From NCBI RefSeq assembly GCF_030013595.1, contig NZ_CP122768.1: DNA of 64,000 nt; one strand, written 5' to 3'. The translations under genes were made by a program, and so were the position numbers. Origin of the DNA: Escherichia coli. GTDB lineage: Bacteria > Pseudomonadota > Gammaproteobacteria > Enterobacterales > Enterobacteriaceae. Positions 4,785-5,566 of the stretch are shown piece after piece (the first letter of the stretch is position 1; each line of letters begins with the position of its first letter). Under the pieces are notes generated by a model. It worked only from the letters and a program-made list of their open reading frames with translations. It was not told the DNA's origin and did no database searches.

Positions 4785-5150
4785 TTATTGCGCTAGTTCT
4801 TTTTCGGCAGCAGCTTTTGCATATTCACATGCAAAATTCAGAATTTCGCTGCCGAGTGTTTTTATTTCGTTATTACTGGACATATGTAATACCTGTGTTG
4901 CATGCAATAAATGATAAACATTTACCGCAAATGAGTCCGGTTCCAGACAAATGCCTTCATAATCATCTTGCTGTGGGGTTGTTTCTGTCATTGCTCCTGA
5001 AGTGCATGCGAGCCTGTTTTTGACAATTCTCTTTCCTCTAATCACTATATCGGCTACATCTATTGCCTTTACAACCTCCGGGAGAAATTCCTGGTTTGTA
5101 TAATCAAAGTTATCAACATGGAGAACAGTTATGTTTTCGAACTTTTTCAT
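4785..5150 (-). CDS. Hypothetical protein (downstream partner of the HTH protein)
   Basis: ORF starting MKKFENI.. with GGAG ribosome-binding site; overlaps the stop of the upstream HTH gene. Confidence 0.45.
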   Translation of the reverse strand: MKKFENITVLHVDNFDYTNQEFLPEVVKAIDVADIVIRGKRIVKNRLACTSGAMTETTPQQDDYEGICLEPDSFAVNVYHLLHATQVLHMSSNNEIKTLGSEILNFACEYAKAAAEKELAQ

Positions 5151-5566
5151 GCGCAAGTATCTCCAGCTGTTGGTTTACCGGTTAACAGCCACATCGGGTC
5201 GCAACCAAGAACATTTGCCAGTGGGATAAGCATACTGATAGTTGGTTCATACTCTCCGCTTTCCCACTGGATGATGATTTCTTCATCGAGATCGAGCAGC
5301 CTGGCGAGTTCGGCGGTTGTTAAGCCGCAGGCTTCGCGTTGGGTGCGAATCCGATTCTGTGAATTAATGGCTAAATTTTGTTTGCATGAACGCGACGCGG
5401 TGAGGCTATATTTTTGAGTTACAGCCAGGATGGAGCTGGCAAGTTCAATTAACTCAGGGTTATTGCTGCTATACAGTAGTGCTCCAGCCCCTACTAAGAG
5501 TTGAATATTCTCAAGAGCATCGTGTTGATTTGTTGGTAACCCCATATACGATGACATTTTCCTCAT
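5147..5566 (-). CDS. HTH (XRE/Cro-C1-type) DNA-binding protein with N-terminal extension
   Basis: C-terminal half has a classic XRE helix-turn-helix (RIRTQREACGLTTAELARLLDLDEEIIIQWESGEYEPTISMLIPLANVLGCDPMWLL). Confidence 0.55.
   Translation of the reverse strand: MRKMSSYMGLPTNQHDALENIQLLVGAGALLYSSNNPELIELASSILAVTQKYSLTASRSCKQNLAINSQNRIRTQREACGLTTAELARLLDLDEEIIIQWESGEYEPTISMLIPLANVLGCDPMWLLTGKPTAGDTCA

Follow-up and report, generated by a model that had tools for sequence, protein, structure and literature searches.

The window, the whole 64-kb stretch of Escherichia coli DNA that was analysed, carries on its minus strand a gene for a regulator with an XRE-type helix-turn-helix (HTH) and, downstream of it, a gene for a smaller partner that looks like an HTH-less paralog of the regulator, the C-terminal half of the partner being homologous in sequence to the regulator's N-terminal extension. 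Judged from sequence, the two genes open the early-left (pL) operon, under CI control, of a lambdoid prophage that lacks N and resembles phiP27. This layout of a regulator and an HTH-less relative has not been studied; by analogy it recalls the SinR/SinI type of regulator-antagonist pair. We tentatively read the two proteins as regulator and modulator in the manner of SinR/SinI, with the hairpin that they have in common linking them (probability roughly 40%). The features are as follows:

5703..6395, minus strand: cI repressor gene (HTH and Peptidase_S24), the next gene upstream of the pair, same strand
5652..5680, minus strand: intrinsic terminator downstream of cI, its stem of 8 bp including 5 G-C pairs and leading into T8, from a scan and from reading the sequence
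5607..5635, minus strand: pL, promoter of the pair, TTGACA, 17-nt spacer, TATTAT
5609..5624, no strand assigned: operator-like palindrome AATAGGTTTACCTATT, within the spacer and -10 of pL
6469..6484, no strand assigned: related operator copy TATCGATTTACCTATT, 3 mismatches, in the spacer of the rightward promoter upstream of cro
6464-6469 (TTGAAT) and 6487-6492 (TAATAT), 17-nt spacer: rightward promoter before cro (ATG 6515), read from the sequence
5147..5566, minus strand: regulator gene, a 139-aa ORF; probable start ATG 5557, giving 136 aa (WP_000100522.1)
5390..5560, minus strand: N-terminal 'X' helical hairpin of the regulator, type A (phrog_4587, residues 3-59, 1.8e-7)
5186..5350, minus strand: HTH_XRE domain of the regulator (Pfam HTH_3, residues 73-127)
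5147..5150, minus strand: ATGA stop/start overlap of regulator and partner, read from the sequence
4785..5150, minus strand: partner gene, 121 aa, phiP27 L08 family, phrog_5451
5007..5150, minus strand: partner 'n' domain, residues 1-48, predicted strand-helix-strand-strand, motif ADIVIxGxxxVKNR
4788..4979, minus strand: helical hairpin 'X' of the partner at residues 58-121, with helices at 71-89 and 94-120 (phrog_4587, 1.1e-28)

Both ORFs are real genes. The first-pass annotation had described a 139-aa protein with a C-terminal XRE HTH, and this description held: the regulator ORF has that length, and Pfam HTH_3 (PF01381) matches its residues 73-127 with E = 8e-12 (45.5 bits, cut-off 23), HTH_19 and HTH_31 likewise scoring above their Pfam cut-offs. 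These matches above the gathering score place the regulator, by sequence, in the XRE / Cro-C1 HTH superfamily, and phrog_4836 matches it at 7.8e-51. Translation probably starts at the second ATG (5557; MSSYMG..., 136 aa), because the first ATG abuts the Shine-Dalgarno sequence and the RefSeq and database proteins begin MSSYMG. The protein begins with the two-helix hairpin X and continues through a short basic arm to a single XRE-type HTH. Our own X HMM matches residues 13-58 at 1e-20, and an AF2 model of a fusion described below predicts helices at residues 11-29 and 34-61 (pLDDT 83-91). The N-terminal extension, which had been called unusual, is present; rather than being peculiar to this gene, it characterises a small family.

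The recognition helix of the regulator, DLDEEIIIQWESG, is unusually acidic. Charge calculation gave a net charge of -5 for the HTH motif and -8 for the domain (pI 4.05), compared to +2 for the HTH motif of the window's own CI and Cro. The closest solved-structure sequence matches to this HTH were the N-terminal domains of the P22 C2 and 434 repressors (1adr, 8.8e-6; 2r1j, 1.2e-5; 1per, 1.3e-3). Unlike those repressors, the regulator lacks an S24 or other C-terminal domain and has its extra domain at the N terminus, and by our alignment its recognition helix has Asp-Glu-Glu where P22 C2 has Ser-Asn-Val. Classical operator binding by the regulator is therefore uncertain, given so strongly acidic an HTH.

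The partner's start had been said to overlap the regulator's stop, and the sequence agrees: the regulator TGA (5149-5147) and the partner ATG (5150-5148) together form ATGA, with GGAG 9-10 nt upstream of the ATG, within the last codons of the regulator. The partner ORF (minus strand, 4785-5156) encodes 123 aa from a TTG and 121 aa from ATG 5150, and phrog_5451 matches it end to end at 5.1e-81. RefSeq/PGAP calls only the last 68 codons (4785-4991, from Met54; WP_000141088.1). We favour the 121-aa model because the ORF is open in 61/61 copies found, because uncoupled copies have their own GAGGAAGCC-ATG ribosome site, because a Salmonella regulator contains the motif of the N-half in frame, and because the N-half is kept in homologs clustered apart at 50% identity. 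That the 121-aa ORF is an artefact and only the 68-aa PGAP gene is real was judged less likely; an internal start may yield both forms. Selection on the N-half is weak (dN/dS of 0.54, versus 0.22 for the C-half).

AF2 modelled the partner as a small n-domain (pLDDT about 60-75), a disordered linker and an X hairpin of two long helices (pLDDT 82-95), with the two domains un-docked in the model of the partner alone (pTM 0.44). No enzymatic or membrane features were predicted. The partner matched no Pfam family at E<=1 and nothing in PADLOC-DB 2.0, and in NCBIfam it had a single chance match (E = 0.028, 13.7 bits against a cut-off of 336). Sequence search of the PDB gave nothing usable, the weak matches to cytochrome b562 (E 0.16-1.1) signalling 'helical' only, and Foldseek of the partner AF2 model against the PDB and BFVD returned generic helical hairpins, none at E<=0.001. 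Neither the partner nor the regulator N-domain was similar to the window's CI, Rha, ash, L06, L07 or bssS-like proteins.

The relationship between the two proteins lies in hairpin X. Both phrog_4587 (regulator residues 3-59, partner residues 58-121) and phrog_4836 match both proteins, and BLASTP of regulator against partner gave E = 1e-3. The two hairpins in the window have only about 35% identity over 34 residues; a joint alignment of both X hairpins shows conserved N77, L81, A84, G100 and Y110. The X profile search recovered three architectures only: X alone, n+X, and X followed by 1-4 HTH domains. The Salmonella regulator P0222 carries X (49% identity, 5e-15) plus the n-motif of the partner (53% identity over 34 aa, E = 5e-5). 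By our count, the X helices are about 50-58% hydrophobic. An AF2 model of regulator-X fused to partner-X through a 30-residue Gly-Ser linker reached pTM 0.61 with 39/159 residues disordered; the five fusion models had pLDDT of 54 to 73, and the linker fusion itself biases towards packing. Foldseek matches of the fusion model to four-helix bundles all had E > 0.3, and the ferritin/Dps bundles that ranked first among them were set aside as not significant (E 0.4-1.8, TM about 0.3, rmsd >11 Å).

A leftward promoter had been proposed ahead of the pair, and we found TTGACA-17-TATTAT there, an 11/12 match to consensus and the best promoter match in 3400-7200. The upstream gene encodes CI (Pfam Peptidase_S24, 2e-17; phrog_4, 5e-54; PGAP name 'LexA family transcriptional regulator'), and a strong terminator separates the pair from its transcript. 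The 16-bp palindrome of pL occurs once in the 64 kb, and the sole other site within 3 mismatches, with 0.22 expected by chance, is at 6469-6484 in the cI-cro region. The rightward cro promoter around that site is our own reading, an 8/12 match below the scan threshold. Since the only recurrence of the promoter palindrome is in the cI-cro region, we assign the pair to the start of a CI-controlled pL operon: a leftward promoter beyond cI with an operator common to the cI-cro region, as expected of a lambdoid pL, can be recognised. The heteroimmune phages PhiR49_2 and phiP27 likewise have sequences common to their pL and cI-cro regions. Over the 2 kb of the operon that follow, no terminator-like site was found on the minus strand. 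In 3400-7200 no nut- or put-like RNA was found, and an Rfam scan at E<=1 returned one sub-threshold chance match only. Among these N-less lambdoid prophages the module holds the place that N has in lambda, as the first product once repression is lifted. Given the operator and the terminator after cI, the pair should be silent in the lysogen, and the idea that it is a lysogen-expressed moron like rexAB was dropped for the same two reasons.

We compared the pair across 84 related loci. An X-only or n+X protein lies downstream of the regulator, within 600 bp, in 81 of them, and the order of regulator and X protein is the same in Stx1a/2a/2d phages, Salmonella, Klebsiella and Enterobacter. The regulator is kept without a partner in 2 of the 83 untruncated loci. 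The pair was found at one prophage position only, next to cI on its downstream side in lambdoid prophages. Across loci the partner hardly varies, and the regulator family rearranges often via repeats, with 1-4 HTH copies. Less than half of the relatives have the coupling overlap, and 128-577 bp separate the two genes in the rest; the spacing ranges overall from -4 to +577 nt, and other ORFs have been inserted there. Tight coupling, taken as an overlap of 4 nt or a gap no longer than 5 nt, recurs with three X proteins, L08, X63 and X66. An ATGA junction joins the regulator to a 66-aa X protein in the Stx2d phage Stx2_112808, and phiP27 has an ATGA junction too, there with a different downstream ORF; the phiP27 80-aa ORF (phrog_23054) showed no homology to the X profile. 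In a search for 11-mers common to >=75% of the 84 loci, in which short degenerate motifs escape detection, no conserved non-coding target of the HTH was found within 3 kb on either side; the only conserved stretch was the HTH-coding block, with a 73-nt run of such 11-mers.

The regulator N-domains fall into at least six types, three of which are not detectably X: types B, D and E had no detectable homology to the X profile (hhalign E 0.04-0.4). N-domain type pairs 1:1 with the type of the upstream CI in 6 immunity groups, and this linkage breaks exactly at the start of the HTH, the HTH block being nearly invariant among heteroimmune phages; megablast to such phages covered only 5191-5350. The partner is not immunity-linked, and its hairpin type does not follow that of the regulator, since A-type and C-type regulators each occur with both the C-like L08 and the A-like X63. 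As a separate matter, the exact co-segregation of N-domain and CI bears on what defines an immunity region.

Set upon the observed gene structure, operon position, shared-operator evidence, domain homology and conserved synteny, a SinR/SinI-like pair would work as follows. Both proteins would be made only once CI repression is lifted, on infection or induction, and in roughly stoichiometric amounts where they are translationally coupled. The X hairpin, which would be too hydrophobic on its own and is the regulator's only candidate oligomerisation surface, would pair with a second X hairpin in a four-helix bundle. Pairing of regulator with regulator would give a DNA-binding oligomer, if the acidic HTH does bind DNA; pairing of regulator with partner would give a hetero-oligomer of altered or lost activity, the partner acting either as an inhibitor or as a co-factor. 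There is precedent for such a mechanism: SinI mimics the helical oligomerisation domain of SinR, forming an intermolecular four-helix bundle and abolishing DNA binding (PMC3163267), and the phage antirepressor AimX blocks oligomerisation of AimC (bioRxiv 10.1101/2025.11.23.689978).

As in SinR/SinI (and SlrR/SlrA) of Bacillus subtilis, an XRE/434-type HTH regulator is accompanied here by a small adjacent hairpin protein homologous to the regulator's own hairpin. The likeness would be one of functional logic, not of common descent. No match to Pfam SinI appeared at E<=1, nor at E<=5, and the X profile aligned by hhalign with E = 0.53 to SinI and 0.72 to SinR. Moreover, the hairpin is C-terminal in SinR and N-terminal to the HTH in the regulator; sinI lies upstream with its own Spo0A-controlled promoter, whereas the partner gene is downstream and co-transcribed; the 121-aa partner has an n-domain that SinI lacks; and this pair sits in a phage early operon, with the interaction being our proposal. 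Several observations count against a SinR/SinI-like pair: the partner hairpin type does not co-vary with the regulator type, the two hairpins in the window have low identity, two-HTH relatives could bind DNA as monomers, the HTH is acidic, the fusion models and their Foldseek matches give weak structural support, and an inhibitor co-transcribed with its target would be an unusual circuit. The partner also occurs downstream of B, D and E regulators, and hence would not depend on its neighbour's X unless those N-domains are diverged hairpins. Should the SinR/SinI-like reading be correct, "regulator plus hairpin mimic" would have been invented independently in Gram-negative phages, and the pair would add a further point at which induction, and with it Shiga-toxin expression, is controlled, one not recognised before.

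The first-pass annotation had offered a toxin-antitoxin-like or a regulatory pair. Synteny in 81/84 loci, the homologous domain and the n-motif fusion support the regulatory pair. The toxin-antitoxin-like reading and the suggested likeness to HipB/HipA-type or abortive-infection pairs found no support, the partner having no match to a toxin, kinase or defence family, and the homology to a phage regulatory protein that had been named as evidence against the idea was found, the matching protein being itself uncharacterised. We consider it extremely improbable that the HTH protein is an antitoxin and repressor and the downstream protein a toxin or abortive-infection effector. An XRE protein followed by a small, tightly coupled or overlapping gene does resemble the type II systems HipBA, HigBA and MqsRA, and the regulator HTH has a weak generic likeness to NCBIfam models of HipB-, MqsA- and HigA-type antitoxins (E 4.5e-6 to 9e-4, with scores that fall far short of the cut-offs) and to generic HTH components in PADLOC (RmrA, capH, PDC-M64B/C), these last matching in the HTH region only. 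The slot is suggestive too, as exclusion genes such as rexAB and BstA sit beside cI. However, the partner matches no recognised toxin family by sequence (HipA kinase, RelE/HigB, MqsR, RES, etc.) and no toxin or defence protein by fold; nothing enzymatic or membrane-associated is predicted in it, and it is paralogous to the would-be antitoxin's own domain. The two proteins do not both match any one PADLOC-DB 2.0 system. Nor is the pair an autonomous, self-regulated operon found in varied genomic contexts: it has a CI-type operator on its promoter, which together with the terminator against cI read-through makes expression in the lysogen unlikely, it keeps to one prophage position, its overlap is not conserved, and the regulator can persist without the partner (2/83). 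A rather unlikely alternative is that the two are independent early-left accessory proteins, the shared hairpin being a mosaic relic of duplication and unequal recombination where HTH repeats abound, or both hairpins binding a common third party of host or phage origin and not one another. This would accommodate a nearly invariant partner beside at least six regulator N-domain types, three not detectably X, the free shuffling of hairpin types between the two genes, the variable gap with its inserted ORFs and the frequent repeat-mediated rearrangement of the family. It is at odds with synteny that persists across genera despite heavy regional mosaicism, with the fusion of the n-motif into P0222, and with the recurrence of tight coupling with L08, X63 and X66.

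The 1:1 linkage of N-domain and CI types, breaking exactly at the HTH, would be expected if the X protein or the regulator N-domain inactivated the cognate CI, which, because the pair sits behind the CI-repressed pL, would create positive feedback towards lytic growth. Small phage proteins beside XRE regulators in the lysis-lysogeny region are known to block repressor oligomerisation or DNA binding (bioRxiv 10.1101/2025.11.23.689978; PMC10432266), some being documented inactivators of cI (PMC10432266), and both proteins here are acidic (pI 4.5 and 5.0), as expected of proteins that bind DNA-binding domains. Such an antirepressor is nevertheless unlikely: distance alone could explain the linkage, as about 150 bp lie between cI and the start of the N-domain coding DNA, and recombination would meet its first stretch of homology in the conserved HTH block; the partner, as the would-be antirepressor, is not immunity-linked; and the N-domain has no similarity to CI. 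The documented modules also differ from this one. Those of the TF-smORF type (VqmAPhi-Qtip, TF72-smORF72) are divergent genes between repA and telN in linear plasmid-like phages (PMC10432266; Silpe et al. 2023), an arrangement that was not observed here, and they are unrelated in sequence to this pair. In both the AimX-AimC system of arbitrium phages and the TF-smORF modules, the small protein acts on the master repressor and is not homologous to any domain of the neighbouring transcription factor. The partner here is paralogous to the neighbouring regulator, co-directional with it and behind pL in an integrated lambdoid prophage. It is improbable, in our view, that the pair establishes lysogeny in the manner of CII/CIII, with the regulator activating cI and int after infection and the hairpin protein serving as a decoy for a host protease. 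PHROGs labels the regulator family 'CII-like regulator', one phage record reads 'putative CII repressor', and the genes right of cro (bssS-family, Rha and ash-family) include none annotated as cII-like. As with lambda CII/CIII, an early regulator is accompanied by a small early-left helical protein, and a decoy would suit the common domain. Yet the regulator has no Pfam Phage_CII match, which leaves 'CII-like' an annotation label, the 84 loci have no conserved non-coding motif within 3 kb either side, an acidic HTH is ill-suited to an activator, and no protease has a known tie to the hairpin. The FtsH protease is the target of lambda CIII, which thereby shields CII and is not a CII paralog, whereas the partner is a paralog of the regulator, and lambda cII lies right of cro whereas the regulator gene lies left of cI. 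Very doubtful, finally, is a regulator that would be a third immunity-specific component, with an N-domain, exchanged together with CI in all six immunity groups, that contacts the cognate CI, Cro or operator complex, and an invariant acidic 'HTH' that acts as adaptor to a common phage or host target instead of reading DNA in the classical way. The free hairpin proteins L08, X63 and X66, which are not immunity-linked and often differ in hairpin type from the neighbouring regulator, would then be decoys for regulators of other, heteroimmune prophages in the same cell; if so, the module would mediate inter-prophage competition in polylysogens such as EHEC.

Searching the literature by accession, phage name and concept, we found no paper on the regulator or the partner, and the database copies are all named only "hypothetical" or "helix-turn-helix domain-containing". 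The module occurs in pig ETEC strains and in phiP27 (Stx2e), and this 1-kb segment has matches in 310 of the 5,426 complete genomes of E. coli.

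In the window's phiP27-like lambdoid prophage, the minus-strand gene for an XRE helix-turn-helix (HTH) protein, the regulator, is followed directly by that for a small protein, the partner, in the following setting.

387-1649, integrase
4785-5156, minus, partner ORF (123 aa with the TTG start, 121 aa with the ATG start at 5150)
5147-5566, minus, regulator ORF (139 aa)
5635-5607, minus, sigma-70 promoter TTGACA-17-TATTAT, best match of the region, with palindrome AATAGGTTTACCTATT within its spacer
5680-5662, stem (then T8) of a strong intrinsic terminator directly after cI
5703-6395, minus, cI, S24-type
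6515-6757, plus, cro

The first-pass annotation had described an XRE HTH gene overlapping its downstream neighbour, and our reading of the junction bears this out. The sequence reads ...ACT TGC GCA TGA in the regulator frame and ATG AAA AAG in the partner frame; the regulator stop and the partner start therefore share the ATGA at 5147-5150, with GGAG 9-10 nt 5' of the partner ATG. Both ORFs are genuine genes, not chance ORFs, because the regulator matches Pfam HTH_3 at residues 73-127 (E = 8e-12, exceeding the cut-off) and phrog_4836 (7.8e-51), and phrog_5451 covers the partner over its whole length (5.1e-81). The second ATG, 5557, is the most likely regulator start (136 aa, MSSYMG...), and it is where RefSeq and all database copies begin. 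PGAP/RefSeq confines the partner to its final 68 codons (4785-4991, from Met54 of the 121-aa ORF); the phiP27 record and PHROGs use the 121-aa form. We favour the latter on sequence grounds because the frame is open in 61/61 copies, uncoupled copies have their own ribosome site (GAGGAAGCC-ATG), and the N-half motif M.KF..IT.LH...ADIVI.G..VKNR is kept in homologs clustered apart at 50% identity and occurs in-frame within a Salmonella regulator. A dN/dS of 0.54 for the N-half versus 0.22 indicates weak selection on that half, and an additional internal start could yield both 121-aa and 68-aa products. In some genomes, frameshifts divide the ORF into an N-fragment and a 68-aa part (P0019-P0026).

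The N-terminal extension of the regulator and the C-half of the partner contain a shared domain, X. We observed matches of phrog_4587 (~66-aa proteins) to regulator residues 3-59 (1.8e-7) and partner residues 58-121 (1.1e-28), and phrog_4836 matches both proteins. The two share 35% identity over 34 residues by BLASTP (E = 1e-3), and their joint alignment has N77, L81, A84, G100 and Y110 (partner numbering) in common. In the AlphaFold2 model of the partner, X is a two-helix hairpin predicted with confidence (71-89 and 94-120, pLDDT 82-95), about half hydrophobic and joined by a disordered linker (residues 49-64) to a small strand-helix-strand-strand N-terminal domain, n (pLDDT 60-75). Searching 1.84 billion representative proteins with an X profile returned only 58 clusters, and these fall into three layouts: proteins that consist of X (58-90 aa), n+X proteins (120-121 aa), and X with one to four XRE HTH domains after it. 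Named members, from Escherichia, Shigella, Salmonella, Klebsiella oxytoca, Enterobacter asburiae and Yokenella, are all labelled "hypothetical" or "helix-turn-helix domain-containing".

An X-containing protein is encoded within 600 bp 3' of the regulator at 81 of 84 related loci (80 from IMG/VR and four GenBank phages); of the other three, one is a truncated contig. This protein is a 121-aa n+X form (such as L08 of phiP27), a 63-aa X or a 66-aa X. Coupling is tight (ATGA overlap or a gap of at most 5 nt) at ~37 loci; at the remainder the gap is 128-577 nt, and some of these loci hold an unannotated 80-aa ORF (phrog_23054) using the same ATGA junction. In phiP27, an unannotated ORF of 80-82 aa from that family (4768-5016, minus; E = 3e-47) follows the L10 gene at the ATGA junction, and L09, annotated on the other strand, is probably a mis-call. 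In the 128-bp gap before uncoupled L08 genes (L002 3466-3500; phiP27, L001, 4475-4510), an inverted repeat, AGTCTC-N17-GAGACT, lies just upstream of GAGGAAGCC-ATG; it may form an RNA stem or serve as a binding site, and is deleted in the window's coupled arrangement. The order cI, X-HTH regulator, small hairpin protein is kept in loci that are more remote, namely in Klebsiella, Enterobacter and Salmonella, and in bona fide Stx1a, Stx2a and Stx2d phages. One Salmonella regulator, P0222, combines X (49% identity, 5e-15) with the n-motif of the partner (53%, 5e-5), a Rosetta-stone hint that regulator and partner may act in one complex. Among members with an organism name, the so far uncharacterised module is confined to lambdoid prophages of Enterobacteriaceae; it is fairly frequent in pathogenic E. 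coli, Stx phages included. The pair's region is 100% identical to prophages of porcine ETEC genomes, and matches to part of it were found in 310 of 5,426 complete E. coli genomes.

The terminator, promoter and palindrome place the pair at the head of the CI/Cro-controlled early-left operon. The sole other site within 64 kb with at most 3 mismatches to AATAGGTTTACCTATT (6469-6484) falls within a rightward promoter-like sequence that immediately precedes cro, and in the heteroimmune PhiR49_2 and phiP27 the region 5' of the homologous gene has its own different repeats, common with the cognate cI-cro region. The terminator shields the pair from the lysogenic cI transcript, which speaks against its being expressed in the lysogen. 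To the right of cro follow Rha, ash, replication genes and a Q antiterminator; no N gene was recognisable in the window prophage.

We clustered the upstream repressors, classified the regulator N-domains and compared the two over all loci. CI type and N-domain type matched exactly at every locus (CI1-B; CI2-C, with subtypes C2 and C3; CI3-A, the window; CI4-A2; CI5-D; CI6-E). The regulator C-terminal tail and the downstream partner were freely shuffled. In N-domain types B, D and E, homology to X was not detectable. Proximity alone may account for the linkage, because the HTH-coding block, almost invariant even in nucleotides, is the first homology left of the immunity region; DNA similarity with heteroimmune phages begins at 5350-5349, the first HTH helix. 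Alternatively, a functional dependence may underlie it, in line with what has been argued for cI/cro transferred together (PMC9836094).

The regulator HTH (5186-5350, minus; recognition helix DLDEEIIIQWESG) is remarkably acidic. Its 24-residue motif has a net charge of -5, versus +2 for the CI and Cro motifs of the same window, and residues 73-136 of the 136-aa form have a net charge of -8 and a pI of 4.05. The second HTH of two-HTH relatives is also acidic (-4). Such acidity is very unusual in a DNA-reading XRE domain, so ordinary operator binding is not assured. The number of tandem XRE HTH domains varies from one to four within the family (regulator relatives P0033, P0102, P0222, P0225), and the 136-aa form with a single HTH resembles the product of a deletion between repeated CDP(L/M)(S/W)LL motifs of a two-HTH form, suggesting frequent unequal recombination. 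A non-classical role of the acidic HTH or of the immunity-linked N-domain would make the module more interesting.

We tentatively propose (probability about 0.4) that regulator and partner associate through their hairpins, the partner acting as an antagonist or else as a co-subunit bringing the n-domain. The proposal draws on the hydrophobic hairpin, which is the only candidate oligomerisation surface in the single-HTH regulator, on a fusion model and on the anatomy of SinR/SinI. Regulator X and partner X joined by a Gly-Ser linker gave a pTM of 0.61 despite a 39-residue disordered linker; however, the AF2 fusion models were inconsistent (pLDDT 54-73) and had no significant fold matches. As in SinR/SinI, an XRE regulator with a helical hairpin adjoins a small protein that is a paralog of that hairpin, but the domain order of the regulator is reversed here. 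X has neither a SinI Pfam match nor profile similarity to SinR/SinI, and the resemblance is one of analogy, not membership. AimX-AimC of arbitrium phages works similarly to SinR/SinI (bioRxiv 10.1101/2025.11.23.689978), and the module may be best described as a variant of a regulator plus hairpin-mimic device.

Counting against hairpin-mediated association, regulators with non-X N-domains still have the same partner, and the hairpin types of the two proteins do not co-vary; the acidic HTH is a further weakness. There is some chance, though a minor one, that the two are independent accessory proteins or share a third target, a reading against which the P0222 fusion and the 81 syntenic loci speak. 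We consider it unlikely that the pair is an antirepressor or positive-feedback module resembling TF-smORF systems (PMC10432266) in logic, and slightly less likely still that it is a CII/CIII-like establishment pair. The first-pass annotation had also offered a toxin-antitoxin-like or two-gene regulatory pair; the shared X domain and the synteny support the regulatory option. Sequence and fold searches of the partner revealed no toxin, enzyme, membrane or defence signature, and this, together with the operon context, makes a TA, HipBA or Abi module highly improbable.

Several neighbouring features were also observed. An SPFH-domain lipoprotein gene (2631-3458, minus), called 'serine protease' or 'lipoprotein' in some phage records, lies in the early-left operon. 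A bssS-family gene (6842-7093, minus), in opposite orientation, lies just right of cro, the position occupied by cII in lambda. An IS3-family element of 1,307 bp (9922-11228; orfA 10851-11177 and orfB 9964-10854, both minus) is inserted ~85 nt inside a DnaC-like 'ATP-binding protein' replication gene, so this prophage copy may be replication-defective; the prophage of strain ETEC1732, elsewhere 99.9% identical, lacks the element. In Salmonella loci L092-L094, cI and the regulator are separated by an inserted gene on the opposite strand (2962-3843; 293 aa, weak BRCT match), which may represent cargo or defence DNA at the junction of cI and pL. Finally, the stretch separating the partner from the gene that follows contains a conserved 37-aa micro-ORF, MTFLKNKASYKTACLIAQHGDSYLHIANLYLRKAYGR (4591-4704, minus), which has GAGGG as its ribosome site; the micro-ORF is without PGAP annotation in ETEC1732, and has homologs in PhiR49_2 (annotated), Enterobacter (L089 5327-5443) and Salmonella (L092 5725-5832).
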